Shown here in pieces: positions 14,725 through 48,340 of a stretch of DNA of 64,000 nt (positions within the stretch are counted from its first letter, which is position 1; the number at the start of each line of letters is the position of its first letter). The DNA lies in assembly GCA_008632985.1 (NCBI GenBank), contig QPGO01000011.1:248001-312000 (forward strand), given 5' to 3'. The notes below the pieces were generated by a model that was not told the origin of the DNA, did no database searches, and saw only the letters and a list, made by a program, of their open reading frames with translations. Origin of the DNA: Psammoneis japonica (lineage: Eukaryota). A program made the position numbers and the translations under genes.

Positions 14725-16026
14725 ATGAACGAAGATCATCAAGAGCCCGATTTGAGCCACACCGATTCCACCATTCGCCTTGCATCCGTCGTGCATCGGT
14801 TTCGAATGCCCATGGTGTTTGACCAGTCCAGTTTTCAACGAGCCTTCAAGACGGCAGGTAAAAGCCACGGAGTCACGACGGCAGCCATGATTCGTGCCGA
14901 CAGCACGCGTAGGGATTTGATTCGGGTGCTGCAATCCAAACGTCCCAATCATGAGCAAGTCGTGACAAAAGCTCAGGATTATGTTCCGTTGATCCAACAG
15001 ATTCTCTTTACGTGCAAAGTTCAACCCGAGTCGGCACGATTGGACGAACGTTTGTTGTTTGAATGGGCTTCGGGTGTCGAAAAGGTGGTGAAGAATGATG
15101 AAGCAGACAAGTTCGAATCGGAAGCACTCATGTATGACCTTGTCATGTCCATGGCAGCTGAGGGATTGGGACAAGCTGGATGGGCCTGCGAGGACAGCGC
15201 AGAGGGGGACTTTGCCAGTGCCAATCGGAAATTTGGAGCTGCTGCTGGTCTTTTTGAATTCTTGGAGAAGGATCATTTGCCGCAATGGGTGGCACGCGGG
15301 ACGGTGGATGAAGACAACCTTCCTATGGAAGCAACCGTTGGTGGATGTGCAGGACTCAAGCTCCTATTTTTGGCGAATGCGCAGCAAATGGCAGTTGCTA
15401 CCGTGTTGATCAAGCCGGGTACTCCAAATTATTCGCTCGTGGCCAAGCTTTGTTTGGGAGTAGCTGAGAAGTTGGAAAGCTTTGTCTCCACCATGCGCAA
15501 GGACGCCTTTCATCAAATGTCGAAAATGGACAAGGAGTTCTTCACGTTGGTGACCTTTCAAGTCAATCTACAACGTTCGCTTTCGCTTTATTTTCAGGCA
15601 CGGTCCCTGTGGGACACGGATCAAAATTATGGATTGGCGATTGCGCTTTTGAGCGAAGCTACTCAATTGATTAAAACCCGTTCCACCTCTGTCGGTACGG
15701 GCATTCCCGATTTGACAAAGACTCAAAAGCTTCACACGCTACAAGAGGACCTTGTGGACTTGAGGGCGCACATGGCCAAGGTACTAAAGACTTGGGAAAA
15801 GGACAACTCTCACGTTTACTTTGACCGTGTCCCACCCAAGGTGCCAGAGTCGGACAAGCTGGAGAAGGGACTCTTCATTGCCAAGATTAAGCCTTATGAG
15901 TTCTTTGAAGACGTCGATCCCCTGCCTCTAAGCATTCCGGACGCTTCGGATACTACCCCGGCTACCTTGACTCGGAGTGATAGTGATCTTGCAAGAGAAC
16001 TGCATGAGAAGTTGAATAACTTATGA
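14725..16026 (+). CDS. BRO1-domain protein (BROX/ALIX-like)
   Basis: Intact 433-aa ORF with FEWASG, AAGLFEFL, LANAQQM and EKDNSHVYFDRVP. UIM-like tail SDSDLARELHEKLN. Confidence 0.8.
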   Translation: MNEDHQEPDLSHTDSTIRLASVVHRFRMPMVFDQSSFQRAFKTAGKSHGVTTAAMIRADSTRRDLIRVLQSKRPNHEQVVTKAQDYVPLIQQILFTCKVQPESARLDERLLFEWASGVEKVVKNDEADKFESEALMYDLVMSMAAEGLGQAGWACEDSAEGDFASANRKFGAAAGLFEFLEKDHLPQWVARGTVDEDNLPMEATVGGCAGLKLLFLANAQQMAVATVLIKPGTPNYSLVAKLCLGVAEKLESFVSTMRKDAFHQMSKMDKEFFTLVTFQVNLQRSLSLYFQARSLWDTDQNYGLAIALLSEATQLIKTRSTSVGTGIPDLTKTQKLHTLQEDLVDLRAHMAKVLKTWEKDNSHVYFDRVPPKVPESDKLEKGLFIAKIKPYEFFEDVDPLPLSIPDASDTTPATLTRSDSDLARELHEKLNNL

Positions 16027-17200
16027 ATCTGAAGCATTGATCCGGACATGCCTCGCCGTCTATATCTTCTAGTGTTTAAATCTGGTTACAATTTTACTAT
16101 TTGCGTTGTACTGTGCATTGAGATATTGTGGCAAACCGAGTCTCTCGGATATTGAGGTTCTAGGGCATGGCGTGTCGTTACAAGCAAGGGGTCAATCTTT
16201 CGCATCTATTTATGTGTTGAGTTACGTGTTTTGGGAGTGACAACACAAGGAGAATGAGGTAGGGTAAGCTGACAATGTTGAGCAGTTATGGAGCTTGTTT
16301 TGTCACTACACAATGGCACCAAGCTTCTTCTGTTTCTACTGTGTCTCTACCATGTGAAAAGCATGCATGCAACTCAATGCTAAAGGTTGTTTCATGATTT
16401 GGTTGATGCAATTCTGATGCAATGAGACGACTCGGATGAATGATGAGTGTGTGGGACTGTGGAGATTGAGAAGTCGCGCAGAGCGATGCATGCCCATTTT
16501 TGTAGAATGCTGCATCTCTCGAAAGCACATTTGAAACCTGTCATGTGCACTGCAACACCTGCAACATGGATGTCTTTTTGTTTCACTGGTTGAGGCAGCT
16601 CCAAGTCTCTCACAAAGCTCCTCGTGCGGGTGGGTGTGGTGACCCTGGTGTCTGGGGGTGCAGAGACTGTGTGTCCCTTTGAATTGGTGTGAGCATCTGG
16701 CACCACTTTGGTTGTGTGTTTTGCAAGCTGATCAGCGGCACTTGTTGCCCACTGCACAGTGCTTGCACTTGATGGTGGTGCACCCCCTGCAAGTCAAAAC
16801 AATCCATTTGACACATGCTTTGCTGTCAAACAAAAAAGCACCATGCAGACATTGAAGGATGCCAAATCTTTGAGAACTCTTGCTGCAGCTCATCTGGCAA
16901 AAACCACGACAATTGGAGCTGTGGAAAAGCCAATGCACTCCCATTTTTTTAATCACTTGGTGGGCAGAATGGTTGCCTTGCTTGAGCTGTGCTGCAAAGT
17001 TTGGTGTGGCATTTGCCAAAATGCTGCTGCATTGGAAAATGTGACAAACTCAACTGGTCATTGAACTTGCTTCCCTGCTCACTGCTGCAGTGCTCTGGCA
17101 TGCTTTTTAGAAGTTGCCATTGCCCCTCAACTGGTCAAATCATCAAGTCCAATCCAGCATTGACAAGAAGATGTGCGCAGCTTGCTCACATTGGTTTTCT
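15930..17200 (+). repeat. Copy A of a diverged direct repeat (BRO1 3' end + intergenic + CMS1)
   Basis: Aligns by eye to about 47035-48340. Shared blocks include acaaggagaatgagg.agggtaagctg and ttgaaggatgccaaatctttgagaa. Confidence 0.9.
16559..17200 (-). pseudogene. Decayed CMS1 copy
   Basis: DAHTNSKGHTVSAPPDT...FVRDLELPQPVKQKD here, against HTNSKGYTVSTLPDT...FVRDSVLPQLVKRKD in the intact gene. Frameshifts present, TpA and CpG largely lost. Confidence 0.9.
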
Positions 17201-19035
17201 CTTTTTGGCTTTCTTCCACTCATTTCAGCAGCTTGTGCTGCTGGGACTCATGATGTTGGTTTTCTCTTGAAGCTTTTTCTACTCATTTTTGCAGCTTTTT
17301 CATGCTGGAGCAGTGGGGCATCATTTCACCAGCTTGGATGCATGCTTTTTGGTTGGGCAAACAACCAACAACAGCAACAAGCAGTGTTCTGAGCAATTTG
17401 AAGAGGAGCAAGTGTTTCTGGAGCACAGCACAAAGGAACAGTTTGATGTCACCTTCAATCCACTGTGTGCAGCAAATGGTGCTTGAGAGCACCCCTCATG
17501 TTTGCCCCTGACAACCCAGACAATTGGAGCACAGCCACCATCTCAACTCTTTTGTTGACTGCAAAGCACCATGCTTTCAGAATTGTTTGTTTGGGTGCAC
17601 ACAATGCAAGCCCTCTTTTCCCTGTTCAGCACACAAAAGACAGCTCCTCTTGGTTCCTTGTCAATGGAAGAAACAACTTGTTCCCACATCCAGTCTGTGG
17701 GTCAATGGCATTGGCACACACAAGCACTTCTTGACAAGCAAGTTTTGGTCATTTTGAGAAATTTCCACCAGATTCAAACAAGTGGCTTAGCTTGGTTTGT
17801 GGTTTGAAAACAACACCTCTGTTGAGGAATGAAACACAGCAGCAAATGACAAGAAGGTCAAGAGCAAGGTGGGCATCTAGCACAGGTGCCTTCATGGCAC
17901 ACAAGTGACAGCACCATCTCATGCCTGTCTGGAGTGGCAACAAAGAGCTTCTTTGTGCCTTCCTTTGCATGTGACACCATTGCTGAATTGTGACTCACAT
18001 TTTGCTAAAAGTCTTTGTTGCTTCATGAACAGCCAACTGGCTGCTTGATTGCTCTTTTGTCTGCTGCCTCCACATCACAGCCATCACAGCCACTGCTGCC
18101 ACACCCTGTCACCCTCTTCTCAGCAGCTGGCTGAAATTTTTGAAAATGTCCCACAGTCATTTTTTTTTCTTGCAGCTTGAAAAAAACACACTTCTGTGTC
18201 TGCCTGTCAGCCATCTTGGAGCACAGAGTGTGAGTGGATTTTCCAAGCAGGTCTTTGGAAGTGAAGACAATGTTCAAGAGCAAATTGCCGCCACTGCTCA
18301 AGGGCACAAGGACACTGGAGGGCATGTGGTCAACCCCTGCATTGACTCAGTGATGCATGATTGAAAAGATGCAAGAAGTGCTCTTGGAGGTGCAGTCATG
18401 AAAAAAACTCAGGGTGGTGGTGGTGGTTGTTCCAACATCACTGCTGCCAGGCTTTGCCTCAGATGCACCACAACCATCATGCCTCAAGCAGAAGGTGTTG
18501 GGACAAGTTGGAAGACGGGAGATTCAGGAAACCCACAAATGTTGAAGAAAGATGTTGTTGCTGCTTGCATGGTGGAGGATGTGGTGACTCACAGAATGCA
18601 AAGTTGATTGTTGCCAATCCGGCCCATCTGTGTTGTTGTTCTTGCTCTTTGGGGTGAATCATTTGGTTTGTCAAGAATGTGCAATCATGTCACATTGGCA
18701 TCACCAGGTGCCTGTTGCATTTGAAGTTTGAAGTTTGCATGACTGAAATTCGCGGGCAACCCACAGCCGCAAATGCAGCCAAGGCAAGCACAACAAGAGC
18801 ACAGGAAGCCCAACAGGATTGCCATTTGGGCAATGGTGCCATTGACTTGCTGGTTCCACATTCACTCCAAAGAGTCAACAGCACAACTGTGTTGGTGCTT
18901 GAAGATGCATTGCCATCTGCAGCTGGCTGGTTGTTGAGTGCCTGCACAATGAGCAGCAAAGGAAGAAGCAGAAATGACCATCACGGCCAAGGACATGGCT
19001 GAGGCAAAGGTGACAAGAGCCACAGGTCTTCTCAA

Positions 19036-21611
19036 GTGAAGAAGAAGACCACTGCTGAGAAGCATTTTCAGCCTGAGATAAAGTTTCGCCCTTCATCACT
19101 GAACAGCAACTCTTTGATGCAACACATGAAGACATCAAGGGGAAAGATTGTGGGGTGCACGCAGAAGGAGTGCACTCAAGGCACACACCTGGTAAGGTCT
19201 CTTGAAGATGTGGAGTGCAAGGCCTTCAGTCAAGAAGAGCCAAAGCTGGGAATGATCACAATGGCAGTGCCAGGAGATGACAACACGGGCTGCCAGACAA
19301 AGCTGCTGCTGAGACAACAAAAGGAAAAGGAGCTGGAGCTCCATTTCAAGGCAAAGTTTCACAAGTGCAATGACAACAAAGTGAGACAGTTTGAGGAGAA
19401 CAAGACCACAGCTTTTGCCAAGATGGTGAGAAACTGCTGCACCAAGCAAATGAAGCAGAGAGTGCAAGCTGATCATTCTTTCTGCACAGCAATTGGGGAC
19501 AATCTGATCAAGCCATTGAGGCCAATCCAATCACTTGCTTTTTGCTCCATGAGAGGTCAACACCTGGATGTAAAACAACAAGAGATCATGAGCAATTGAA
19601 CAACTGCTTGTCAAGATTCAAGAACCAACAAGATGCCGCAAGTGAGAGTCTCAGCAAGAAGATGCTGGATGAATTTGTCAAGAACACCAAGGAGTGCAAG
19701 GATGGTGCTGCAAGAGTGTGAGGGGATGAGGCTTTTTGGCCCCTGCAAGTGCACTGCTGCACCCCTCACTGACACACATGTGAGGCCAGTCTGGCCTCAG
19801 GACAAGGCATCAAAGACTTTGAGTTTGTGGGAAAACATGGAGACAACCTTGTTCGTGATGCTGGTTGGAGTGCAGCAGCAGACAACAAAGAAAACAACAA
19901 CAATGAAAGTGACAGCAACAGCAACAGCAACAGCAAAGATGAAAACAAGTGTGATGATGACAACTGCAGGACCAAATCAGAGCTGGAAGATGAAGAACAT
20001 GCAGAAGAGCCTGACCCAGAAGGTGAGCATGAAGAAGCAGACAAAATGCTGGGGCAGGCAAAAGGTCCAGCCCCAATCAACCACACAAGGACCACAGCTG
20101 TGAAGAATCAGAAGACCATGAAGAGTCAGACAAAGATCCAGAAACAGGCAAGCCATTCACTGGGAACAGGAGTGGACAACAGAAACTGCTGCACAAGGCA
20201 GATGAGTTGCCAGGCAGGAGGAGTGACAAGAAGTGGCGCAAAATTTGGCACATCCCACAAAACATGAGGTTGTGAGAACACAGAGAAAAGAGAGTTTGAT
20301 TTGCAGGAGTGACAGACAAAGCAATGGAAAAGATGTGCAGAGAGCTCAAGCTCTGCCATTGCTTGAGAACCAATGTGAGCCCAAATCCAGAGAATGACCA
20401 ACACACAGCTGCAGGAATGGCGCTGGCACAATTTGTGTGTGAGATCAACAACTGACTCTGATTGGAAAGGGTGTTTCCTTCACCCAACAGTGCCTTCTGC
20501 ACAAAGGGCTGAAAGCAACATTTGGCCAGAGAAGATGCTGTTGAGCCTCCAAGAAAGAGGTGAGACAGCTGCACAACAGAGTGTGTTTTGCAACAATCTC
20601 AGCAGAGATGTGGTTGTGGAAAAGGGGAAGAGAGTCCTCTGCATCCAAGTCATCAAAGCAACACACAGAATGTTGATTGTGTCCTTGCCATGGCACAAGC
20701 AGTTCTGCAAAGACTTTGGAGAAGATTGGGTTTAATGGCAAATGGCACACCGTGCATTTTCATGTGGATGACCAGATGTCAAGTCACAAGAATCCCAAGG
20801 TCAATGACAAACATTTGAGCTGGCTAAAGAACATGTGTGGAAGCCATGGCAAGGTTGTTGCAACAGGAGGGAAGAAGTGTGACTGCCTTGGGATGACACT
20901 GGACTTCAGCAACAAGGGCAAGGTGAAGGTTGATGTGACTGACTGTGTTCGCCAGATGATTGAATGATTCCCAGAAAAGATCAAAAGTGCTGATGCTGCC
21001 ATGATGCCAGCAGGGGAGAACCCATTTGAAACAGGTGGCACTGGATCACCAGCCAAGAAAGCAAAGACACTTCACGCATGGGTGGCCAAAGGACTGTTTG
21101 TGTCCAAGAGAGAGGCTGCATGGATGCACACCCGACCATTGCAGCACTGTGCATGCAGGTCAAAGGACAAACTGACAAGGATGGGGAGAAAGCCAGTCCA
21201 TCATCTTGATCAATTGAACCAGACAAGAAATGAAATTGCTGCGCTGAGCACAAAGGACCTCCAAGTCATCAAGTGGTGCAGCACAGATGCATTGTTCTTT
21301 GCAGCGCATGTGGATTTCAAGAGCCACACCAGAGGAGTTGTGACCATGGGCAATGGAGCTGCACAGGCTGCGTCAAAAGTGACAGAAGCTCAACACCCAA
21401 AGAAGCACAGAAACTGAGCTGGCAGGAGTCATTGACAACATGACTGCAACGCTGTGCCTGGAAAAGTTGTTCATGAAGTGCCAAGGCCATCCAATTGACA
21501 AAAACATCCTCTGCCAGAACAACAAGAGCACCATGCCATTGGAGACTGATGGGTGCGTGAATGCAGGAATGAGATCCAGAGCACTCAACATTTGGCATTT
21601 CTTTGTCACTG
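19036..21611 (+). mobile_element. Decayed Ty1/Copia (CoDi-like) LTR retrotransposon: gag, linker, RT, RNase H; integrase mostly missing
   Basis: gag FEENKTTAFAKMVRNCCTKQMKQRV; RT VEKGKRVLCIQVIKA, FHVDDQMSSH and DCLGMTLDFS; RNase H DFKSHT, NILCQNNKST and RSRALNIWHFFVT. LTRs not identified. Confidence 0.9.
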
Positions 21612-21788
21612 GCCTTGTAAAGACCGACAAGGGGAGATGACCTCATCACCCATTGATGGCGCATCGGGAAGTCACCCCCCGCTCTGCCTCCATTGAACGC
21701 ATCTAAGTTGGCGTCTGGAAGCAAGCTGCTGTTGCTCATTCTTCCAAAGAGCTTCAGCAGCAAGCCAAATGGACAGTCTAAAAGCGCT
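21612..21788 (+). repeat. Split direct repeat A1
   Basis: Matches 26844-27022 (gcct.gtaaagaccgacaagggg...gacagtctaaaagcgct). Confidence 0.95.
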
Positions 21789-21805
21789 GTTGTGTTCGGC
21801 GGAGG

Positions 21806-24130
21806 ATGCCATCCGCCGCTGCATCTACAAAGCTCGCAGGATTGTCACACGTTGTGAATCAAGACGGAAACATCGGAAACAATCCGCCGCCGGATGCCGC
21901 TGCAGCGGCACAACAACCTGGGGGCGGACAAAATCAACAACCGATTCCGGCGGCCAACAATGCCCAGAACGTGCCGCCAGCACCGGTGCATCCAGTGGCT
22001 GGCAGTGCCAGGAGCAGCAGCACAACCAGCCGCAGCGCAGGCAGGACAAGCCCCTGGAGCACCACCACAACAGCCACCACCCCAAGTGCCACCCGTGCCG
22101 CCAGCAGGTCCCGCGGGGCAGGGCATTCCAGCACCACCAGCAGCAACCCGCACTTGTCGGGATTGCCACACTCGCATGCCATCAAGGATTCACACGCCGG
22201 TGACTGTGCGGAAATCATGCAGGACTTCATGGTCCCACCACAAGGACAGTCACGCTGTGACCCTGACATGCTGAGAAACCGAGTTGGGGCAGCTTCATCA
22301 CACGATTTGCCTGTGGCTCTTGTGCAGCACTGCCGGGTGCCAGGAGGTGACGACATTGGAGTCATGCAGGTGCTCCATTGCACAACCCAGCACCCAATCA
22401 CGGCAGCAGGACCAGCACAACCGTGGGACGGACAATTTTTTGCGCTCGCAGGCGACCTGACGATGGGACAACACCAACTTGCACCCATCGCTAATGATGC
22501 ATTCCAGTTGGCCCAACACGGCACATGGGTGCCGACCGACGTGGCGCTGCAAGCCCACATTGTTGCAACCCCGGAAGGATTGCATCCACAAGTGCAGCCA
22601 AATGACCCAGATGCTGTTGAGGTCAGGACGCGGAACACCATGATGGTGCCATTCGCGTCTGTTAATCTCTTGCTTTCAATGCCGTTGATGCCGAAGCAAG
22701 CATTTGCCCGGGTGCTGGGAGCTGTCACAGCTGCCAATGCAGTCAACGAATGCAGGCCACTTCTGGATTTTTTGAAAGTAGCATGCTGCGCAACAGCGTG
22801 GGACCAACACACATCCGAAGTGGTGCAAGCATGGCCAACGATGGCGCAACCACCCAACGAAGTGCCAACTCGTTTCTTCAATGCGATGGTGCAGCGCGAT
22901 CTTCCGAACCGCGCAGGCCAACTGCTGCAACCGCGCCAGTTTGAACCAGTGGTCACTGCCATCGAGAGCTTAACAGCAGAGCAGCGCCAACAACGTTTAG
23001 ATGCGGAAGCGCGCCAACAGGCGGCATCGCACGGCAAAACACCGACGGAGTTCTGCGGGGAGTTTGGCATGGCCAAACTCATGCATTTGTGCCAGGTGCA
23101 TCATGAAGCCAACCTGCCACCACTCTGGGCGCAACTGGCGGCCTCTCCCAAGACCGGTTGAATCGCCGCCGTCCAGAATGCAATCGATGAGCAACGGCAA
23201 GCACACCACGTGTACTTCAATGTGCCGGTGACCGTAAATCTGGTCACAAAACTTGCCCAAGTCGACTTTGCCGGGCACAACAAGGACAAGTTAACTCAGG
23301 GAATCACCCCTTTTTTGTTCAGCATTGCTGCACCAGAACAAGCCAAGCAGACCGCCTGTCGCAACTCTGTGCATCAACAGATTCATGGAGGCGATGGTGC
23401 ACCTTCGCTGGCAGACACGCGAGTGTTGGAAGCCCCCGGCGATGCCATGGTGGCTGCTGCGATCCAGGCGGTTCAACAGTCTTTCGATGGGTTGCGCATC
23501 ATCCTCTCTGCAGCCTTTGGCACAGCACATCCACTGGCACAGTGGTTGACTCACATGCACCAGTCCATGGACGTCCAAGCGAATGATTTGGCGGTGCAAG
23601 TGGTGTCGCACCCGACGTCACCAGCGGACCTACAATGTTGCGCGCAGGCAAAGATGTGCCATTGGTTTCAAGCACAGACGTGCTCACAAAACCCTGTCCC
23701 ACTCCAACCACTCCCAGTGGTGGCTGAGGCCGCACAAGGCGCCTGCCATTGGCGTCTCGACTCACCGACGTCTGTCCTTCAACCGCCCACGACACCACGT
23801 TCGCAGACCTCTGTGCAGTCACCGCCTGGACCAAGCCGCATAAATGCGCCAGGCGACAATTCTGTCGTCCGTAACGAACAGTGCGACGAGTGCTTCACGG
23901 TCTTGCGGGACCGTCCCAATGTACGTTCTCGCACCGTCAAGCAGTGCTGCGCCCGTGACAACATTGCCTTGCCTGTGGATTCCCAAGGGGCGCCTCGTTG
24001 TCTTCCACACCATTTCATTGGACAGTGCAACAACAACTGCGGATCAAGGGCCAATCATCACCATGACCACATGGAGCAGGAGCAGGTCGACCTTCTCGCG
24101 TGGGGTGCGCAACATTGGAAGACCGAACAG
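21806..24130 (+). pseudogene. Ngaro ORF1 (gag-like) with a C-terminal Cys/His finger
   Basis: Long Tyr-poor reading frame broken by TGA at 23159-23161, ending RCLPHHFIGQCNNNCGSRANHH. Confidence 0.7.
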
Positions 24131-24289
24131 GTCATCGGCAATGGCTCCTGCTCGGGGACATGGAACCAAGAGCCACTTCCCACATGGGCACACAAGCCCA
24201 TGCATCCACAACCCCTGCAAGTGGAGTCTAGGAAACGGCGCTTCAGCCCCACAACAGGTGGACAGGATGTGGCCGCATCAGTGCTGACT

Positions 24290-26215
24290 GACAAATCAGG
24301 CAAGCAAATTACACGCGATGCACAATCATTGCGCCTTAGAGGCCTCAGTTGCTTGTTGCGTCTGTGCAGTGGTGGAGGTGACTGGGGACCATTGGTGACA
24401 ACGCGACAGCATGCAGCACACCAAGTGCTCACCAGCTGCAAATGTTGAGGTGCACCGGTCACTGTTGCAGACGCGCCATGGTCCAACACTGAGCTCCAAG
24501 GTAGCATCGCTCGAGGACCACACAAGTCCGCCTACGAACACATCGAGTTTTTGCGCAAAGACATGTCTGACTATGTCGACAAGGGTTTCTGGGTGGTTGT
24601 CCCACATGACAACGTCAAAAAATGAACCCAATCTACGGCTGAGCCCTGTCGGCAGCGTGGTCCCTCAACACGCACGTAGACCACGACCGATTGTGGACTG
24701 CACATTCTACGGTGTTGACCCTTCCACACAGCCAAACGTGCCAATGGAATCCATGCAGTTCGGGCGCACGTTGGACCGCATCCTTCAGCGCGTTCTCCTC
24801 GCCAATCCAAACAAAGGCCGCATCTGTCTCATGAAGATTGACTTGGCTGATGGCTTCTGCCACATGCAGCTGGCGCCAGAGCAAGCACCCACACCAGGTG
24901 TGGTTTTTCCCCGCCTTCCCGGAGAACCCCCCCCCAGTGGCCATGCCCACTTGGCTGCCCATGGGATGGTCCAACTCACCACCGGCATTTAGTGCGGCAA
25001 CCAAGACGGTCACCGACATTGCCAATCACCAGCTCATGTGCAACCATCGGGCACCGCACCACCCACTCGAACCTCATCTTGCCAGCCGTCCACCAAAGCA
25101 CCACGCCATCACTGCTGACGTGAATCCGTCTGTCGCTGTCCCAGTGCCAGACACGCCGGATCAACACCTCGCGCACCACCGCCAGTGGCACCTCCAATGT
25201 GTTGACATCTACATTGATGACTTTGTTGGCGAAGCCCAAGGCTCCAAACAATCGCCATGCAATGTGCATCGCACGATCATGCGTGCCATTGACGATGTGT
25301 TCCGTCCACTTGACGACCAAGACCACCCCAGTTGCAAGGAGCCAATCTCAGTCAAAAAGCTCTGCAAAGGCAACACCACTTGGTCAATGCAGAAGGAGGT
25401 CCTGGGGTGGATCATTGACACTTTGTCCATGACCATCTGCCTTACGCCGCGACGCCGCGAGCGCCTCCGCACCACGCTGTATGAAGAGTTTCCCCGCCAT
25501 CGCAAGCGGGCAGCACTTGGCGACCTGCACAAGCTTCTTGGCGAACTGCGATCCCTCACGCCCGGCATTTCCGGGTCTCGCAATCTGTTCTCCGAACTCC
25601 AGGAAGCCTTGCTCCACACTGGGCCAGACGGGTGAGTTCGTCTTGCCCGCAACTTTCACGACATCTTGGATGATTTTCGGTTGTTGTGCCGCAGGCTCGA
25701 CCTCCGCCCCACCCGTGTCCAAGAACTTGTCCCCCCTTTTGCCTGCTGTCACAGGCTGCCATGATGCAGCCGGTCATGGCGCAGGGGGGGGTCCTTCTCC
25801 CTGCGCCGTCAGCAGTCGCACGCAGCACCACGCTGCGTCACTCCACTGCGCACCGCCGGAGACCACAACACAATGCCGGACCTGTTGTCTGGCGCATGAA
25901 TTTCCCTCGGGCAGTCATCGACCGACTGTCCACCTTTAAGAATCCCCGCGGCCCTGTTGCCAACACCGACTTGGAGTTGGTTGGTGGCATTGTGCAATCC
26001 TGTGCCGGGGCAGACTGTTTCGACGTTCGAGAGCGCATGGTGCTCAACCGCGCGGACAACACCGGCACTCTCTTTCGTCAACGCAAGGGCTCCACCACCA
26101 CTGCAAAGGTTGCAGCACCCCTCCTCCGACACCAAGGTCACCACCAACGTTTCCACCACTGCCTGTTGCTCCACGATCATTTGCCGGGACTGTTGAACAC
26201 CGCTGCGGATGAATC
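24290..26215 (+). pseudogene. Ngaro reverse transcriptase + RNase H
   Basis: RPRPIVDC, KIDLADGF, LPMGWSNSPPAF, YIDDF, KEVLGWIIDT, HDAAGHGAGG, NTDLEL and HLPGLLNTAAD. Frameshifted. Confidence 0.9.
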
Positions 26216-26611
26216 CATTGCGCGAAACATCTCCGCGCCTTTGGCACCACACCAGACACGCCCCTCGGTGTGTGCTTGCATGACAACACCTGGTGCCGTG
26301 TCTCTCCCGCCAACATTGCCAGCATCCTGCGCACCGCAATTCTGGCAATCGGCCCCGCTACGCTGGGTTTCACACCCGCCGATGTCTCCGCTTGCTGTTT
26401 GCGCGTGGCTGGTGCCGTGGCCCTCCCATGTGCCCATGTTGACACCGACGTGATCCGCCTCTCAGGCCGATGGTGCTCCGACAAGATGCTTCGTTGCCTC
26501 CACTTGCAAGCAGAACCTGTCATGCGCAATTTCGCAACCCGCATGTTGGCTGGCGGCCAATTTGTCCTGCACCCCAATGCCGACGTGCCCCTTGCTGCCG
26601 CCGACCCGTGA
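26215..26611 (+). pseudogene. Tyrosine recombinase C-terminal fragment
   Basis: VSACCLRVAGAVAL...IRLSGRWCSDKMLRCLH corresponds to the SLRxGGA...GRWxSD..xxY boxes. The N-terminal part is absent. Confidence 0.85.
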
Positions 26612-26709
26612 TTCCATCACAGGCCACGCCTCAGCCTTCCAGCCGGGCCCACCCACCCACCCAATTGCACCGCCACTGCCCACACCAGTGTACATGGGTG
26701 GTGCCAGAA

Positions 26710-26843
26710 TGGCCATGCCATTCCAGCTTGGGAATGGAAAGGGACCAACTGCACTGGCAAAGTCCTCCCATCCCTGCCAATTGCCTGTCTCTAGAATCAG
26801 ATCACCGCAAGAAGTCGTGCGAGCAAAGCGACGCCAGTCGCTG
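26710..26843 (+). repeat. Split direct repeat B1
   Basis: 134 bp, matches 27041-27174. Confidence 0.95.
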
Positions 26844-27022
26844 GCCTCGTAAAGACCGACAAGGGGAGACATGACCTCATTGCCCATTGATGACGCACCG
26901 GGAAGTCACCCCCCGCTCTGCCTCCATTGAACGCGTCCAAGTTGGCGTCTGGAAGCAAGCTGCTGTTGCTCATTCTTCCGAAGAGCTTTGGCAGCAAGCC
27001 GAACAGACAGTCTAAAAGCGCT
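26844..27022 (+). repeat. Split direct repeat A2
   Basis: Matches 21612-21788. Confidence 0.95.
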
Positions 27023-27040
27023 CCCACCTCTCCCTCCCTC

Positions 27041-27174
27041 TGGCCACACTGTTCCAGCTTGGGAATGGAAAGGGATCAACTACGCCAGTAAAGTCCTCCC
27101 ATCCCTGCTAATTACCTGTCTCTAGAATCAGATCACCGCAAGAAGTCGTACGAGCAAAGCGACGCCAGTCGCTG
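27041..27174 (+). repeat. Split direct repeat B2
   Basis: Matches 26710-26843 but retains its TpA sites. Confidence 0.95.
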
Positions 27175-27220
27175 ATCAGCAAATTGAGAAGGGCAACCTT
27201 GGAGTGCAGCTGCCCGACTG
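27175..27220 (+). mobile_element. Continuation of the interrupted Copia RNase H, then truncated
   Basis: (g)at cag caa att gag aag ggc aac ctt gga gtg...tgc ccg act = DQQIEKGNLGV..CPT, which continues FFVT from 21610. Confidence 0.85.
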
Positions 27221-27482
27221 TGACAACACACATGTCTACTGGGGCCCTGGTACTCCTTCTACGTACGTAAATTTGGTTTTCCGGAGTTCTTTTGCGGGGT
27301 AACCTCTTACTTGCAAGAAGGAAAAAAAAGCGCTGGCGCAGATCAGATAGACCCGAGACCGTCACAATGGCGCTAGCATCTCTCTAGAGAGTCAAAACGA
27401 TTGTGCCCTTGAGATTAATGGAAGCATTCTGAAAGCCTTTGACCACATCAGATATTTTAGAGCTGCGCCCTCTAGAGCTCGA

Positions 27483-28450
27483 ATGGGAATGAACGCCTTG
27501 CTTGCCCGAGCAGTTGCCGTTATTTCCTCCACTCCAGTAATGGTACAGAATGAACGAATCACACTGTACTTTTACGGCCTCTGGATGGGCTCTGCATACT
27601 GCCTCGCAATGCTGGCAGCTCTCTTTCACCTTGTGCATCATTTCGACACCCAAACTGTGCAAGAATATCTTTGGGTTATGACTCAGTACGTATTTCCTGG
27701 TGCTGTTCTGGGCGCAAGACTCTGTTCTTGGTTTCTTGAGGATAATTTGAAAGTCTCCAAACTATTTCGTTCTGGTTTCTGGTGGCATGGAGGATTGGTG
27801 GGTACACTGCTTGGAATGTCCATTGGTTGTGCATTTCATGAAGTGCACGTGGTTCCAATACTTGATGGCTTTGGGTTGGCCATACCCGCGTTTGAAATCT
27901 TCAATCGCCTTGGATGTCTATCATATGGCTGTTGTTGGGGACGGGCCGTACATGCCTCTCATCCACACGCCATTCGGTTTGACAATCCACGATCTTGTAT
28001 TCATCGAAAGAATTCTAATGTCAAAGACGAGTGGCTTTATCCCGTCCAGGTGTATGCAGTTATTCTTCGTTCCTGCAACTCTTGATACTATGGCCTCTGG
28101 TGTGGACAATAAGGCAACGTGGCGTGCTGTTATTCTTGGGTATGACTAGTAGTTCCGTTGTTCGTTTAGTTTGTGAAAAGTACCGAGGAGATTTTCGGGG
28201 CAATGGAGTAATCTCCACCAAGATCTTTTGCGTTGGTCAAGTACTGATAGCAGTCCTTTACTATGCGTTTTCACAAGGTGGTTACAACGATCTGCCATCA
28301 ATAGATGGTACCGTCACTTTGGCAATAAGTAGTCTGATGCAGCTCGTACTGGTAAACAAGCTACGGTTCGGGCTGGTGTTTGTGTCAGCCATGCTTGCCT
28401 ATGGATCTGAGTGGTCGCAAACAACCATGACCAGTGTCCCTGCTAAGTAG
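27483..28450 (+). CDS. Prolipoprotein diacylglyceryl transferase (Lgt)-family membrane protein
   Basis: FYGLWM, GAVLGARL, GFWWHGGLVG, FNRLGCLSYGCCWGR, YPVQVY and VRLVCEKYRGD. One frameshift near 28060. The start may lie upstream (ATG at 27367 if frameshifted). Confidence 0.85.
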
Positions 28451-28569: not shown

Positions 28570-30760
28570 TCATACTATAGTAAACGAGGCCCAGAAAGAG
28601 GGCACTACTTCAAGGACCATGATGGTCTCGACATCCTCACAGTAGCCAATCCATTCCATTGGGCTTCCACCATACACCTCGTCTTCTGAAAGGCGTTCTC
28701 CGGGCATCACCTGAGTCATTGGTATGACCTTCACATTGTTGCCAACTTGACATCCTGGAAGTAACACGGATCGAAATCCTATCCGGCAGTTCTCTCCAAC
28801 CGAGATTGGCTGAAATTCAAGCTTTCCATTCTGAAACGAATGGCCGAGTATCGTCACCTCGTCCTGTATGACAGTATGTTTTTTCACCGTCAAAAGATCC
28901 GCTTCTATCACTAGTGCTGAAGATGACACTGCAGTACCAGACTCTATGTTTGCTCCAAAGGAGTTCCAAATGCAACGGGTGAGCCAAAAATCATTGATAA
29001 CCTGAAGTGCCACCCTGGTGGAAATTGAAATAAGAATGCTGGCTGCCATCCACCGGAGTATGCCCATGCTAAAAAACTCGGCGCTTGGGGCATTAGTAAA
29101 CTTCCCAATGACTACCCACTTAATAAGCCAGCCGACAAACAGCAAAGCTACCCACACGCCGCTTAAAGAAGCAAGCATGACTCCGCAGAAAACTAGGAAT
29201 CCATTGCCAACAACCAAGTAAAGCACTCCGCACACTCCAAGGAGCAGTGCTCTCGTCAAATAAGCGTAAGGAACAAAGATCAACACCATTTCCAGAGCAG
29301 TGAAAAGCCATTTTCTGACCGCCGAAACTGATGCGACATTCAAAGTGCCCTCTTTTCGCCTCGAATGGCTTTTCAGCGGAGGATTTCCAAAAGTCAGGCA
29401 GTTCTCTTCGACTGCTCCCTCAACAACGGTTCCTGCCCCGACTGTGACATTATCTGATAAAGTCGACCCCTCCTTCAACACGGAGCGGTCAAGCACAAAC
29501 GAATTTGAGCCGATACTTGTCTCTTCAAATGTTGCAATGCCATTGCAGTCTACACTGAAGCTGCGAATGACAACGCCATTTGCCATGAAAGTGCCGCTTC
29601 CTGAGACAAACAAATCTGGTTCGTCCGACACGGCTGCAAAGCTATCACACAGTGATGCCGTACGTGCACCAAGGCACCACATCACTGTCCTTCTCAGGAA
29701 GCCAACCTGGGGGCAGGTACGTTCCTTGCAAGCTGTAGTGCCAACCAACGTCTTGCAAATTCTGTCGACAAGACATGACAACATCCGGGTCGAGCGCGGC
29801 CGAAGAGAAGAACCCGACGTAATGCCCACACAACAGCACAAGCAACTAGAGCACCAAGCATGACCCAGACTGGTGACAAAGCGACATATAAAGCTGCAAA
29901 CAAAATGAGATTGGATCCAATTGAATCATACAGAACCTTGACTGCAACAAGGTACACCAAAAGGGTTGCAAGGACAGGGATTAGCATCACAAATGGAGTC
30001 GCCCATCGTAGGACTAATCCAAAGACCTCAGATCTTTTTTCTCCACTTGATAGATGGTCAGTAACTAGTTCCTTTTTCTGCATGAGAGTACCGAAAACCT
30101 TGCATTTCGGTCCAACATGTGCATCTCTCGGCACATAGGTGAGTGGCCCGACTTCTGCGTGCTTGCCAACTGAACTATTCATCCCCAAAACCGCTCGAGG
30201 TTGGACTATGCTTCCATCGCCAAGAGATATACGTCCAGATTCGATTCTTGATGGCAGTTCCTCCATGCATCTCAAGGCTACACTTGATGAAATGTAACAG
30301 TTCGATCCGATCGAAACATGACAAGGATTTCGCAGGCAATTCTCCTCTACGAAAACGTGGCGTCCTATCTTTGCCCCGAAAGCCCGATAAAAACATGGGA
30401 GCCATGGTGTGCCGCCAATGAACGAGCCATGAATGGCATCAGTCAGTAGCCAGAGCCTATCAAAGATATACCATCGGTATGCAGAGAACGAGGAGGAACT
30501 CACAGTTCCTTCCTCGACATTTCTGATCAGAACTAGCTTTGAGCTCAGCGTCAACGCCAAGAGCAAAAGATAAAACGAACCGATTCCGGCTACGACATAT
30601 CCAAAGAGGCTCCCCAGTGTGCTGAAGCGACCTGCGCTGGTCAGCAAAGAAACGAAGGGAAAGAAATGATGCAAAGTAGCAGTGCAACGGATATGACTGC
30701 AGCCAACTTTAGAAGAAGAACATGGAAGCAGTTGCCTTGAACCTCAACATTAAGTCCGTC
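28570..30760 (-). other. NRPS terminal domain: transmembrane segments alternating with three left-handed beta-helix repeats, epsilon-poly-lysine synthetase (Pls)-like
   Basis: [45 protein letters not shown] and [34 protein letters not shown], separated by hydrophobic helices. Confidence 0.8.
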
Positions 30761-33700
30761 AGCAGTCGAATACAGAGGCGTCTGGATTTGTGCTGCATAC
30801 CGGTGGGCTGTGCTCAGCCGTTGTGTGATGGTTGTAGATAGTCGACGACAAGTACGCATTCATACACATCACGCACAGACAACTTGTCCTGTGACAAACC
30901 TGATTCCCGTGCTTTCGACACAAACTGCGCAATGGTAAGGGAGTTCGCCCCTAGCGACTCAATAATATCCGCTGTCACCGATACAGTTTCTGATGGAATT
31001 TCCAATACTCCCGATATTATCTCAACATGTCGAGCTTCCATCTCATTTGAAGGTGCCACGTATTCTTCCTCAGATGAACCTGCCAGAAGGGGATCGAGAA
31101 TCATCCCCAAAAGCGCTTTCTCGTCCACTTTGCCATTTGAATCCAAGGGCATCGCATCGACAACTTTTACTTTCGATGGAATCATGTAGTCCACCAGCAT
31201 GCGACGGCACCATGTCGTCAGATCGGAGCTCTCCGCCTTTCTTGACCCAATGAGGTAACGAACGCAACCAGCCGAGACCGAGGCTCGTCCAACAACACAA
31301 CAGCACGGTCCACATCTTCGTGTCTCTCCAGTACGGACGATACTTCGCCAAGCTCGACTCGGTATCCTCGCAACTTGACATATGACGCCTTGGACTTAAC
31401 TCGGCCCACAAAATCCAATAACCCATTCGGCAACACGCGGACGAGGTCTCCTGTTTGGTACAGGCGATCGAAGGCACTTTTCCTGCCATCCTGCGTTCCA
31501 TGACTGGACTCGACGGGGAAGAATGGGTTGGGTGCAAAGCTTGCTTGAGTCTCTTCTGGTCGATTGCAGTAACCTCTCGCGAGGGCGACACCACTGATAT
31601 AAAGTTCGCCGATAACTCCAATGGGAACTTGATTCATGTCATTGTCAAGAACATGCAGCTTGACATTAGCAATTGGGCGCCCGAGACTAACACAGGAGGA
31701 GCCTTGCATGTTATGGACGTTGGAGGGCCTCTGCCGTTGGAAAGGTTGAAGTTACGGTCACCGTGGTTTCTGTTGGCCCGTACGTATTGTGAACTTCAAT
31801 ATCTGGCATCGACGTTGTTAGCTGCCTAAATCGCTTGCTCGAAAATCTGTCCCCACCACATACGAAACTTGGGTAGGAACCACTTGGTTGTATTTCGAGT
31901 CCATCCAACAGCCCTGGCGAACAGAAGAGAAGCGAAACATTCATTGCCAAAACTAGCTCTCTCACATTGCTGATTAGGTCACGAGCAAGTGCTGGAGGTA
32001 CTAAACAAAGACATCCGCCAGATCCAAGAGCATACAACATCGTCTGAACGGAAACATCCCATGTGAGGCGCGATGTCAATAGCAAATTGTCGCTACTGCC
32101 CCCTTGGCCGATTCGCCCAGGATATGCACCAAGAAAATAACAACCAAGATTGGCAACAGATCTGTGCTCGATTTCAACACCCTTTGGCCGGCCTGTGCTC
32201 CCCGATGTGAACAAAACGTAGCACAAGTTGTCCAGCCCAACCTCCACGCCCCTTGGACGATGCGAAGACTTGCCATCTAAACCTGCGTCTTCAATGGCAA
32301 ACGCATGCCTCTCGAGGCGTCTGTGCAGGTCGTCTACTCTACTGCTCACGCAAACACTAATGTTGGCATCCTCCACAATACTCGCAATTCTCCCATCGGG
32401 ATAGTCATCATCCATGGGGACGTAGGCAGCTCCAGCCTTGAGGATGCCCAAAACAGCAATGATCTGGTCAAAGCCACGTGGGAGCAAAATTCCGACACAC
32501 TCCTCCACCTGAACATCGCAGTCCTCTAACAAGTAGTGCGCCAGCTGGTTAGCTCGGGCGTCAACTTCCTGGTATGTCATGGTCTCATCCATCATGCGAA
32601 GTGCGACCGAGTCCGGTACACGATCTACCGTAGCCTCAAAGAACTCGTGCATCAGTGGCCACTTCTTCCAGTCCACTACTTGACCAGTAAGGGCCTTTTG
32701 TAAAAACTGCTCCTCCGCAGCAGGTAGCGCCAGGGCATCGCTCACTGACCCGCATAGCTCTCTCCCTTCCTGCGTTATTACTTCTAGTGCCTTGAGGTAG
32801 GAAGCCAAGAAGCGCTCGGCCGATTCTTCACCCCAGATACTTCGCTTGACACAAATCGATATCGAGCACTTAGTTACGGTGCACTCAATATCGAACTTTG
32901 GTGGCAACATGCTTTGCTCCCACATCATGTCAGAAGGCTCGAAAAGACCCCCTTCGCTGAACGCTGTGTTCATAGGAGGACCTGCCTTGCTCATGTCGTA
33001 GTTGAGTAATGCTTGGAACACGCCTCCTTGCCCCTGTCCCGGCACCTTGGATGACACCACATCAAATGGCACGTCAGCGTGGTCGAGTGCTTCCTGCCAC
33101 AGTGCCCAACGGTCCTCCATCAGTGACACCAGATCCATTTGGTTAATTTCGCCACGTAACCGCAGAGCTATGGTGTTCACGAACATCCCAATCATAGATG
33201 GACTATCCACGTACCCTCGTTCTGCAACTAGGAGGCCAACAACCAAGTCATTCTGGCCGCTGTATCGCTTTAATTGGATTTCCAAGGCACACAAGCACAT
33301 CACGACTGGCGACAATTTCAGCTGAAATGCGGTTTTCTGCAATGACTTCATGAGAGGAGTACTGAATGGCCGAGATACAACCACACATCCAGTCTCATTC
33401 CTACCAGACATTAGGCCTCCTGCTGCAGATGAAGGCTGGATATCTTTTGAGAGACTTAGCATGGGGAGAGGCTCACCATCCACTTCAACGCCAAGGTGGT
33501 CGATCCAGAAGGATGCATCTGCAGGCCCGTTCTCCATTTCGTCACGGAACTGTGCCCATGACCAGTCAACGTAGTCAGACGCCAAAGTGGGCAATGTATT
33601 AGTGTCTTCATACAATTCCGCCAACTGCTTCACGAACGGTTCCACACTTCCGCCGTCGAAGCCGATGTGATGAAATACCAACAGCAATTCGGAAGAAGAA

Positions 33701-36700
33701 GGTAGAAAGTATGCTCGCAACGAGCATTCTGTCGCCAGATCAAAGGGCACAAACATCAATCTCTTTAGCTGCTCGGCATAACCTTCTCGGGTGCCCATGC
33801 CATCCAACACTTCGATCTTGAACTCATCTGCTAAACTGGCATCAACAACACCAATCGTTGACGTTTCACAAGTTGGATCACCCACATATTTCGTACAAAG
33901 CACTCGATGTACCTTTAGCATCGCACGTGTGGCACACTCTAACCTATCGATATTAACCCCATCACGCACTCGTAAGAGGTGAGGAATGTTATATGCCCCG
34001 CTCTTAGGATCCATGAATTGAGCCAGCAACAGTCGCTGCTGCGCGTGTGTCAGTGGATAAGCTACCTCGCTGCTATCCTCGGCGGCTTCGAAATCGTACT
34101 TCGACTGAGCCAGGCGAGCCAAGAATGATGGGTGCTTCCGCAATGCCGAAACCTCCTCCGGAGATAACACACAAGAAGAAAGTCGACGCGGGACATATTC
34201 ATTCCTGAAGGACAGCATGGACTGTTGTTTCTCTCGCCAAGTAAGCAACATTGCAATCTGATGTACCGTTGGTGACTCATAAACATCCTTGATCGACAGG
34301 GAGGCAAACGAGCCTCCAAACTGCCTCGTTTCAGATACAAACTGTGCAATCACAAGGGAGTTCGCGCCCAAAGTACCAAAAGCATTTGCAGAAACCGAAA
34401 CGGTCTCGGACGGAATAGCTAAAACCTTTGCAAACGCTTGAACAAGCTGAATCTCCATCGCGTTCGAAGGTGCCAAGTATTCTTCTTCCTCGGATTGGGA
34501 TGCACCTGCCAATAGGGGATCGAGAATCATCCCCAAAAGCGCTTTCTCGTCCACTTTGCCATTTGAATCCAAGGGTATCGCGTCCAAAACCGCTACTTTC
34601 GATGGAATCATGTAGTCCACCAGCATGCGACGGCACCATGTCGTCAGATCGGAGCTCTCCGCCTTTCTTGACCCAGATGAGGTAACGAATGCAACCAGTC
34701 GAGATCGAGGCTCATCCAACACACAACAGCACGGTCCACATCTTCGTGTCTCTCCAGTACGGACGATACTTCGCCAAGCTCGACTCGGTATCCTCGCAAC
34801 TTGACATATGACGCCTTGGACTTGACTCGCCCACAAAATCTAATAACCCATTCGGCAACACGCGGACGAGGTCTCCTGTTTGGTATAGATGGTCTTGTGT
34901 AAGTCTGTGACCAATGTCGCCATTGCATTCAATGAATGGATTCTGTGTAAAACTTGCAGAAGTTTCTTTCGGACGATTCCGATAGCCTCTCGCGAGGGCG
35001 ACACCACTGATATAAAGTTCGCCGATAACTCCAATGGGAACTTGATTCATGTTTGTGTCCAGCACGTAGAGTTGAACATTGGGGATGGGGCGCCCGATAG
35101 GTACGGCAGAACCACTTTCCTTACTTAGTAACAATCCTTCATCATCGTAGAATGTCTGCGTCACGTTGACGGTTGCCTCAGTTTGGCCATATACATTGAA
35201 CACGTGGCTTCCTAATGACCGGAACAGAGCAATCGTATCTTTACTCAGCACGTCGCCTCCGACAACGGCGCACGGGCACTTTGGCAGACTTTCGGGGTCG
35301 AGTCCATGAAGTAGTGAAGGCGCCGAAACTATCAAGGTAACATCCATGGAACGTACAAGTTCATTGATATAGCCAACAAGATTTGGGGCGAACTTTGGTG
35401 GAACCAAGCAGAGAGAGCCACCAGATACAAGTGGATAGAGCATCGTGTCCACAGACCCATCCCACGAAAGGCGCGAGGAAAAAAGGACACGGTCGGTTAT
35501 GGTGCCCAAGCAAGCAGAGCGTTGAGAGATTACACAACCGAAATTGGCAACAGATCTGTGCTCGATTTCAACACCCTTTGGCCGGCCTGTGCTCCCCGAT
35601 GTAAACAAAACGTAGCACAAGTTGTCCAGCCCAACCTCCACGCCCCTTGGACGATGCAAAGACTTGCCATCTAAACCTGCGTCTTCAATGGCAAACGCAT
35701 GCTTCTCGAGGCGTCTGTACAGGTCGTCTACTCTACTGCTCACGCAAACACTAATGTTGGCATCCTCCACAATACTCGCGATTCTCCCATCGGGATAGTC
35801 ATCGTCCATGGGGACGTAGGCAGCTCCAGCTTTGAGGATGCCCAAAACAGCAATGATCTGGTCAAAGCCACGTGGGAGCAAAATTCCGACACACTCCTCC
35901 ACCTGAACATCGCAGTCCTCCAACAAGTAGTGCGCCAGCTGGTTAGCTCGGGCTTCAACTTCCTGGTATGTCATGGTCTCATCCATCATGCGAAGTGCGA
36001 CCGAGTCCGGTGCACTATCTGCCGTAGCCTCAAAGAACTCGTGCATCAGTGGCCACTTCTTCCAGTCCACCACTTGACCAGTAAGGGCATTCTCGAGGAA
36101 AAGTTTGGATTGTTCCGGAATGATAGTCAGATCTTTTGCAGGCTTATCCAAGGCGCCAGGTGCAGTCATGCTGCGAAGCACCTGGAAGAAGGACGAGAGG
36201 AAGCCTTCTGCAAAAGACTGACTCCAAATCATTTTGTGGACCAAGAGCTTGAACCGGTCCTTATCTCGTTCGAGTACGATGTCAAAATGAGAAAAGGCTG
36301 GATCGAACGTTTCATTGACACAGGAAGCAATCTCTAAGTCTGCCGTGGTTTCTCGAATGTTTGTGACGTAGTTGAAGATGGCTTGGTATACTCCCTGACA
36401 CCTCTTTCCTTTTTCAGCCACCACGTCAAAAGGCACATCTGAATGTTTTCGCGCAGATGTCCAAAGGAGAGAGCGCTGGTGCAGTAGATCTTTCAGTGTA
36501 AGACAGCCGCAGTCGCCCTCCAAGAGCAAAGCGAGAGTGTTCACAAACATTCCGACTGTTTTTTCAAACACATTCGCGTGTCCTCGTACGGTGACGGGAA
36601 TCCCAACGACGATGTCATCTTGTCCCGTGTACCTCTTAAGTACAATTTCGTAGGCAATCAAGTAAATAAGAAATGGAAAAGTGTCAAACCGAATTGCCAT

Positions 36701-47034: not shown

Positions 47035-47129
47035 TCACCCCAGACACTTTGGACACTGCTTCAGCAGCCTTGACTTGGAGTGACAGTGATCTTGCACAGG
47101 AGTCACACAAGAAATTGAGTGATTTGCGA
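47035..47129 (+). pseudogene. Decayed 3' end of the BRO1 gene
   Basis: ccttgacttggagtgacagtgatcttgca here, against ccttgactcggagtgatagtgatcttgca at 15965. Confidence 0.85.
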
Positions 47130-48340
47130 CTCTGAAACATTGGTCCGGTCGTCATGTCTTGCTGCCCTCTGTTTTTCCACTGTTCAAATCTGCTCAAAGC
47201 CACGTTGGTTGCATTGGACTGAGCAGCTTGGCTGAGCTGTGAGATGTTGGGCAAATCTAGTCTCTCAGATGTTGAGCTGTGGGGCATGACTGTCTTTACA
47301 AGAAAGGGGGCAGTCTTTTGCACATGTCCATGTGCTGGAGGCACTGGTTTTGGTTGTGACAAGGAGAATGAGGCAGGGTAAGCTGGCAACATTGAGCAGT
47401 TACAGAGATTGTTCTGTAGCTGCACAGTGTTGCCAAGCTTCTTTTGCTTCTACACCATCTCTATCATGTAACAACCGTGCATGCAACTCAATCCTAAAGG
47501 ACGGCTCCTGACTTGGTTGTGACAATTCTGATGCAACGAGACGACTCGATGAATGACAAGCACGGGACGACAATGATCGAGAAATCGGGAAAATAGAGCA
47601 ATGCATGCCCATTTTTTTTGTAGATTACCAAATCTAGTAAGCATGTTACTATCCTATCATCTGCACTGCAATACCTAAATCATGGCAATCTTGGTATCTT
47701 TTCGTTTCACCAGTTGCGGAAGGACAGAGTCTCTCACAAAGCTCATGCAGGCGGGTGCGGTATCCGGAAGGGTAGAGACTGTGTATCCTTTTGAATTGGT
47801 GTGGCATCTAGCACCACCAATTGTGTGTGTTCCAAGCTGAGCGCCGGTACTTGTCCACTGCACAATGCTTGTAATCGATGTGGCGTACCCACGGCGAGTC
47901 CAAATGATCCGTCGCGTAGCATAGTCTGTTGTTGCTGTATTGACATGTGTTTGGCAAACAACTTTGCAGCGCGACCTTGAAGGATGCCAAATCTTTGAGA
48001 ATTGCCACGGCTCGTCTTGGCAGAAACCGTGACAATGAGAACCATGGGCGAGCCAACATGCTTCCACTTTTTCAATCTCTTGGTGGACGGAACGATCGCC
48101 TTGAACTGTGTTGCAAAGTCAGGCGTAATATTGTTTGTCGAGGCTGCTGTTGTTGCATCGGAAAAGTGCGATAGACTCAACTGGTCAATCAAATTTTGTT
48201 TGTCTGTTTCATTGCTTCCCTGTTGCAATTTATTGTAGTGCTCGAGCGAGGTTTTCAGAAATTGGTGTTGCACCTCGATTGGCTGATTCATCAAGTCGCG
48301 TCCGGCATTGACGAGAAAATGCGCACGATTCGTAGTTGGT
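47035..48340 (+). repeat. Copy B of the diverged direct repeat
   Basis: Aligns to about 15930-17200. Confidence 0.9.

Follow-up and report, generated by a model that had tools for sequence, protein, structure and literature searches.

Ascomycete RIP inactivates repeats after their insertion through dinucleotide-specific transitions that make TpA from CpA, and we know of no natural genomic DNA adenine-editing defense that is established. In Bigelowiella natans, TpA-restricted hypermutation of integrated NCLDV and virophage DNA has been measured de novo, with the rate raised about 1,000-fold and switched on or off between lines; the main text of that preprint proposes an ADAT2-like DNA deaminase and remarks on transposable element (TE)-like coding sequences that are depleted of TpA (bioRxiv 10.64898/2026.01.13.699255). 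TadA-type deaminases, whose natural substrate is tRNA, favor T before the target A, with TAC as the preferred motif (PMC8065034, available text). Diatom TEs undergo DNMT5-dependent CG methylation and CpG decay (PMC9998398 and PMC12344493, available text). Ngaro retrotransposons are GC-rich elements of about 6.4 kb, organized as A1-[ORFs]-B1A2B2 and encoding ORF1, RT/RNase H, and YR (PMC8547959, available text).

The window analyzed here, a 64,000-nucleotide stretch of contig QPGO01000011.1 of Psammoneis japonica, contains a Ngaro element nested in Copia-type DNA beside an Lgt-like gene (Table 1). A host process acting on silenced chromatin probably erases TpA from such sequences rapidly and separately from CpG, and it usually stops short of unique DNA.

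Table 1. Features of the window bearing on TpA loss (window positions)
Feature	Position	Strand	Remarks
Control copy a: live BRO1 3' end and dead CMS1-like copy (16625-17176)	15937..17176		TA intact to 16381 (BRO1); TA erased in CMS1-like copy
Copia-type host, decayed pol as far as RNase H	18300..21604 (left edge approximate)	+	TA and CG erased
Ngaro A1 repeat	21605..21788	+	Adjoins Copia; 3/9 TA kept, not spared
Ngaro coding interior: ORF1, RT/RNase H, tyrosine recombinase C terminus	21782..26611	+	
B1 repeat	26710..26843	+	2/7 TA-ancestral sites kept in bin
A2 repeat and 18-base spacer	26837..27040	+	2/6 TA kept, both where most copies keep TA
B2 repeat, element end	27041..27174	+	6/9 TA kept; step between 27047 (lost) and 27081 (kept)
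Copia RNase H continuation, short	27175..27236	+	Homology to ~27220
Unique upstream DNA	27237..27482	+	TA o/e 0.83, normal
Lgt-like gene	27483..28450	+	First in-frame ATG at 27483; TA o/e 0.73
Control copy b: dead BRO1 3' end (near 47004-47126) and live CMS1-like gene	47040..48324		TA erased in BRO1 end; TA intact from 47258 in CMS1-like gene

The element at 21605-27174 shares with described Ngaro elements the A1-[ORFs]-B1A2B2 split direct repeats and an RT/RNase H ORF followed by a tyrosine recombinase ORF. Unlike typical Ngaro elements in the available description, the window copy is missing about 830 bases, has broken reading frames, and has domains below Pfam cut-offs; no RT, RNase H, or recombinase match reached the cut-off (RVT_1, E = 0.12), and a PDB search with the RT frame returned nothing. 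Compared with sister copies, the missing bases fall at 26212/26213 and comprise the RNase H end and the first half of the recombinase. ORFs of sister copies resembled RT and tyrosine-recombinase clusters (Atlas feature scores, 0.95 to 0.97). The nesting was called from base-level continuity at the junction: other Copia copies run continuously across it, and the host picks up again at 27175 for about 45 bases. A 7-base target homology (21605-21611) lies within A1. Local alignment scores for the right Copia flank (198 bases) surpassed the highest score from shuffled sequence at just 4 of 12 loci. Two DNA contig sets confirmed the right junction (27172-27289) with no differing letters; the B2 states and the Lgt frame change lay outside their coverage. 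The segment 20300-21604 has relatives in the same genome at about 67 to 76% identity. We take 18300-21604 to be Copia type on the basis of an earlier reader's label and RNase H motifs; a Pfam scan of this segment gave no match.

Lgt is normally a bacterial enzyme. The Pfam LGT match of the Lgt-like gene covers positions 1 to 167 in one frame and 165 to 235 in another; with a contiguous profile and no room for an intron, this frame change near 28060 is either an assembly error (indel) or a sign of a broken gene. The named homologues of the neighboring BRO1 gene are diatom proteins. A large minus-strand gene at 28570-39888, convergent with the Lgt-like gene and TA-normal, contains duplicated modules and hexapeptide repeats and is presumably peptide-synthetase-like, judging from its motifs. 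A degenerate 9-base tandem repeat was found at 11560-12100 within a TA/CG-erased block.

The original prediction held that the Ngaro element keeps many CpG and few TpA and that the Copia host has lost both, and dinucleotide composition agreed: observed/expected (o/e) ratios for TA and CG were 0.17 and 0.77 in the Ngaro element (TA in B2 alone, 0.81) versus 0.02 and 0.12 in Copia. It also rested on a comparison of the two B repeats, which align without gaps at 90.3% identity, and its counts were exact on realignment. The six TA in B2 between 27052 and 27174 (27081, 27089, 27109, 27113, 27123, and 27149) correspond in B1 to three TG, two CA, and one TA, so that five of six are changed, versus a single loss from B1 (27083) among seven CG in the same part of B2. 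With 13 sites only (Fisher p = 0.029), this pair taken alone is weak evidence of faster TA loss. The view that B2 is spared needed tempering: relative to ancestral TA sites inferred from 21 aligned B copies, it keeps six of nine and has lost those at 27047, 27086, and 27106.

The genome contains 29 matches to the B repeat, of which 21 were aligned (8 short or diverged matches were dropped), and 9 near-full element copies, including that of the window. Two pairs share the same flanks (C84/C454 and C166/C16), leaving 7 independent insertions; C454 and C16 were left out as duplicates of C84 and C166, respectively. The majority state of the 21 B copies equals B1 at all five changed sites. Agreement of a family consensus with B1 had been named in advance as evidence against TpA loss; the agreement was found, but the test was badly posed, with TA being ancestral. 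A majority consensus is invalid as a polarity test here, since TA columns split into TG and CA without CG. Column 27089, for instance, has 10 CA, 6 TG, and 4 TA, and column 27109 has 11 CA, 7 TG, and 2 TA, with CG in none; true CpG columns retain CG in most copies. Across the whole element, 364 of 1614 pyrimidine-purine columns carry both TG and CA. TA also occurs in 59 of these without CG, which 5mC-driven CpG decay as the sole cause does not account for, CG occurs in 175, neither in 129, and both in 1 (29 expected if independent); in a second Ngaro family, TA and CG shared 1 of 1539 columns. A mixture fit gave 19% kept, 42% TG, 38% CA, and 0.4% CG for TA-ancestral columns and 76% kept, 12% TG, 11% CA, and 0.0% TA for CG-ancestral columns (fitted CG to TA, 0.000; TA to CG, 0.004; TG/CA-to-TA emission, 0.001 to 0.002). 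Codons for Tyr, Cys, and His alternate among copies at presumed RT YxDD-like and recombinase motifs. TA is ancestral because its columns split into TG and CA without CG and because these codons alternate. The mutual exclusion of TA- and CG-derived columns shows that, as predicted, TpA loss does not arise as a side effect of CpG decay.

It is thus very improbable that TA is the derived state, whether through double CpG decay (CG to TG/CA to TA), GC-biased conversion, or retrotransposon RNA editing. The B1-like majority state at five sites would fit such an origin, as would the presence of two A_deamin loci in the genome. The exclusive columns, the Tyr codons at conserved motifs, and the TA state of live genes all speak against it, as do the low A-to-G frequency outside TpA (0.0085) and the inclusion of nonretrotransposon host genes among the affected sequences. 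TG and CA are, moreover, about equally numerous, whereas transcript editing would prefer one strand.

Within element interiors of the 7 insertions, 161 of 804 TA and 2545 of 3326 CG were kept (window copy, 25/109 and 305/439), corresponding to a loss-rate ratio of 6.0 (4.0 to 7.9 per copy). The ratio was 7.0 when sites were assigned by rule without the mixture model and 4.0 to 11.7 in the second family. When only columns in which the dinucleotide is still seen were counted, a filter that favors slow TA sites, 39% of TA versus 70% of CG were kept. The claim that TpA is lost faster than CpG was therefore upheld well beyond the B repeats. Outside TA and CG columns, A-to-G changes numbered 144 of 17038 (0.0085) versus about 80% of TpA lost, so general GC bias is not the cause. 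Both strands were hit, and same-strand runs of changes were absent (e.g., 50 of 91 adjacent pairs in the window copy). Unrelated copies were concordant in their TG or CA outcome at only about half of sites, indicating that most changes occurred after insertion; higher sharing between the window copy and C57b (66%) and among three family 2 copies (65 to 68%) indicates that certain losses were already carried by a parent copy. These family 2 copies (C247b, C23, and C13) share few transversions, which suggests that a partly erased parent still transposed.

The order of losses was read from the two same-site pairs, in which most TpA losses preceded the split and most CpG losses followed it. C84 and C454 had identical losses at 83 of 116 TA sites versus 45 of 483 CG sites, with 118 CG lost in one copy. 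Fitted rates before the split were 1.21 for TA and 0.09 for CG, and those after it were 0.37 and 0.17, respectively; the corresponding rates for C166/C16 were 0.88 and 0.05 before and 0.62 and 0.20 after. The 1261 unique flank bases of C166 and C16 contain 0 differences, so that, unless the flank was homogenized or collapsed in assembly, both channels run well beyond background in this pair; within the element, the two copies differ at 276 of 5908 sites. Each pair represents alleles or segmental duplicates. CpG loss in C166/C16, too, seems to exceed the transversion clock by far. Among 293 unselected windows of 500 bases (300 from three other contigs, 7 with N skipped), 160 were TA-low, including 53 that were CG-normal, and none of 110 TA-normal windows was CG-low.

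Sites were heterogeneous: 60 of 118 were lost in every copy, and 24 were kept in at least four. A constant, site-dependent rate trailed the best-fitting of 11 settings by only 5.8 lnL units, and only mild or very short early boosts improved on it. Strong early bursts (20- to 200-fold) mostly fitted worse than the constant heterogeneous rate and were rejected. A higher rate that varies from site to site thus goes most of the way toward explaining "early" TpA loss, and support for a separate early burst is modest. The original prediction of TpA mutation as the early step stood insofar as TpA is mostly lost first (two pairs; 53 versus 0 windows). At two block edges (9364-10000 and 40108-40575), TA vanishes 450 to 600 bases before CG, a pattern expected from either a younger insertion or an advancing front of erasure with TpA loss in the lead.

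Position dependence had been predicted as a gradient toward an active Lgt gene. No gradient was detected along the window element (interior Spearman, -0.10, p = 0.28, 109 sites), B1 (2/7) and A2 (2/6) keep TA at the level of other copies, and the Lgt-like gene, with its frame change, is at best putatively active. Position did matter in another form, a step of 130 to 230 bp at ends adjoining unique DNA. Over both families, TA was kept at 52 of 75 sites in ends beside unique DNA versus 26 of 120 in ends beside repeats (9 versus 15 ends, per-end p = 0.001; truncated C84 B2, C421, and C121 left out). Family 1 contributed 37 of 54 beside unique TA-normal DNA versus 11 of 71 beside repeats, with flank classes assigned after data inspection, and family 2 contributed 15 of 21 versus 15 of 49, as predicted beforehand from flank TA content. 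Spared ends included A1 in C22, C166, and C247 and B2 in the window, C40, and C23, and sparing faded by 130 to 230 bases. C57a A1, with about 260 TA-free bases between its end and unique DNA, was not spared. Two ends beside unique DNA were exceptions: C57b A1 keeps only 1 of 9 TA, and C13 A1 keeps 4 of 7 versus 3 of 7 in its own A2. In the window, the Copia remnant between B2 and the unique DNA has 0 TA in 62 bases despite lying nearer the gene than B2; the protection of B2 extends from the edge of the unique DNA. CpG at the same ends was kept at 51 of 62 versus 49 of 71 sites (p = 0.11, not significant), so that a methylated domain of the same extent is only a conjecture.

B2 lies 310 to 440 bases upstream of the first in-frame Lgt ATG, and at most spared ends the neighboring ORF presents its 5' side. 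Purifying selection on B2 after its co-option into an Lgt promoter could thus be proposed and is quite improbable: sparing recurs at seven independent ends, which come from two families and include A1 as well as B2 ends, with C166 A1 lying beside a gene 3' end. The step is therefore present on the 5' and the 3' sides of genes (for four flanking ORFs, Pfam gave no family). The interrupted Lgt frame and the TA-intact zones extending about 350 to 490 bases beyond the stops of live BRO1 and CMS1 also stand against promoter co-option.

BRO1 and CMS1 provided internal controls. They form a duplicated tail-to-tail region with reciprocal loss, in which the dead halves are TA- and CG-erased and the live halves are intact; 15 of 20 live TA in copy a and 19 of 24 in copy b have become TG or CA in the dead counterpart. 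In a genic duplicate (30913-32697 and 34329-36091, 81 to 90% identity), presumably peptide-synthetase-like by its motifs, both copies are TA-normal. Place, rather than TE sequence or repetition alone, decides TA erasure. A RIP-like, homology-triggered mutation that spares ends because pairing fails at homology edges is improbable. Its targets would be, as here, mostly repeated DNA (the dead BRO1 and CMS1 copies are themselves duplicates), with both strands affected and ends spared. Ends adjoining a different repeat, however, are also homology edges and keep only 26 of 120 TA, the live partners of the duplicates are untouched, and same-strand runs are absent. The NCLDV target in Bigelowiella is, furthermore, single copy in the text of the preprint (bioRxiv 10.64898/2026.01.13.699255).

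Flanking bases influenced the rate of TpA loss. In a context fit to 798 site-copies (negative log-likelihood, 780 versus 843), sites with a 5' A were lost about 3-fold faster, those with a 3' T 3.8-fold faster, and those with a 3' C 2.1-fold faster. ATA/TAT was found at 34 of 74 fast sites versus 0 of 25 slow sites, and among residual TA in erased windows, TTAA was at 0.45 of its normal share and ATAT at 0.008. A strong 5' A effect is not a familiar property of TadA. The T before and the pyrimidine after A fit TadA-type deaminases as characterized in the available text of PMC8065034.

The genome contains 9 PF00383 matches, including ADAT2-like and TadA-like genes. The ADAT2-like gene (L075) has ADAT2 as its best solved match (E = 1.5e-11) and is expected as a housekeeping gene anyway. 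None of the four PF00383 frames scanned out of nine contained a chromatin-reader domain, and the deaminases found look like housekeeping tRNA or nucleotide enzymes, with none standing out. One frame (L074:313-1785) fuses a deaminase domain to a 2OG-Fe(II) dioxygenase and probably serves nucleobase metabolism. The A_deamin (ADAT1/ADAR-type) loci are separate, on C40 and C79 (L109-L112).

The main rival keeps the same targeting with other chemistry: a lesion on T or on methylated A, arising as a methyltransferase by-product in silenced DNA. Candidate chemistries are O4-methylthymine, which pairs with G, and 6mA at ApT that is then deaminated. TpA is self-complementary, which makes T-to-C and A-to-G changes indistinguishable from sequence; the strongest enhancer, ATA/TAT, contains ApT; and the genome has 27 C5-methyltransferase matches (L079-L093), several of them clustered or broken on C297, C301, and C10. 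Against this stand the barely raised change at ApT outside TpA (CAT, 19/1182; GAT, 8/639), the lead of TpA loss over CpG loss, and the nonsignificant CpG sparing at ends. We consider a by-product of this kind rather unlikely.

Under the preferred reading, a host process directed at TpA, a retrotransposon would insert and then fall into a block of presumably silenced chromatin, the likely target. There the process would turn A:T into G:C at TpA in genomic double-stranded DNA, at single sites on either strand, at a speed of about 6 times CpG loss and about 100 times A-to-G change elsewhere. Because it would be fast, most of the susceptible TpA would be gone when CpG decay, presumably through 5mC deamination, had reached 20 to 30%, and old elements would lack both. 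The process would usually halt 130 to 230 bases before unique DNA that bears genes, a distance of roughly a nucleosome with its linker, which would explain the TpA retained in B2 and missing from B1. Tyr codons (RT YxDD motif and likely the recombinase catalytic Tyr) would become Cys or His, which should disable the elements. Adenine deamination by a TadA/ADAT2-like enzyme is the least certain part, a candidate that in our judgment could go either way. More tentatively still, the pattern may reflect a dedicated DNA adenine-editing defense of diatoms, perhaps SAR-wide given Bigelowiella, that would be drawn to chromatin once it is newly silenced, hit new insertions before CpG decay driven by methylation, remove the RT and recombinase Tyr codons, and be fenced from genes by about one nucleosome.

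These results provide testable properties of the TpA process, namely, a channel of its own that outpaces CpG loss about 6-fold and is mostly front-loaded and nonprocessive, with a flanking-base signature and a 130- to 230-base boundary. Together they restrict the range of enzymes and targeting marks to be considered. A two-stage clock becomes available for dating diatom TEs, and the majority consensus of these repeats is wrong at every TpA site.

The process resembles RIP in its postinsertion, dinucleotide-specific, repeat-inactivating transitions. Unlike RIP, it has the opposite polarity, and C-to-T change of CpA to TpA was not found (TG/CA-to-TA emission, 0.001 to 0.002). Live copies and the genic duplicate are TA-normal, to which selection could contribute; same-strand runs do not occur; and sparing follows the flank, not the homology edge. 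The slower CG-to-TG/CA channel of these blocks probably stems from DNMT5-dependent CG methylation. Such methylation gives no reason to expect TpA loss, which is independent and faster, and "TpA" appears 0 times in the available text of PMC9998398 and PMC12344493. TadA/ADAT2 and TadA-derived base editors share the A-to-G change, the T before A, and the TAC motif (PMC8065034, available text); in contrast, the natural substrate of TadA/ADAT2 is tRNA, and TadA as described there leaves unexplained the 5' A enhancement two bases upstream and the targeting to chromatin.

A literature search found no paper on a TpA process in diatoms, with most subscription journals outside its coverage, and the sole measured case of TpA hypermutation so far is the 2026 preprint on an unrelated alga. 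As in its main text, TpA here becomes TpG or CpA on both strands (42% TG, 38% CA, 0.4% CG), A-to-G change is confined to TpA and far above background (about 80% versus 144/17038), and the process is regional, striking foreign or silent DNA (silence here being presumed) and sparing host genes. Bigelowiella differs in being a rhizarian with viral inserts followed de novo, whereas the diatom process is inferred from retrotransposons and dead host-gene copies, with erasure close to saturation in 160 of the 293 windows sampled. The terms "CpG," "diatom," "edge," and "context" are absent from the main text of the preprint (supplements aside), so that text does not treat the CpG-relative rate, the order of losses, the flanking preference, or the end step. 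What this locus and its relatives add to that system is a rate, an order, and a boundary for a TpA mutation process in diatom retrotransposons.
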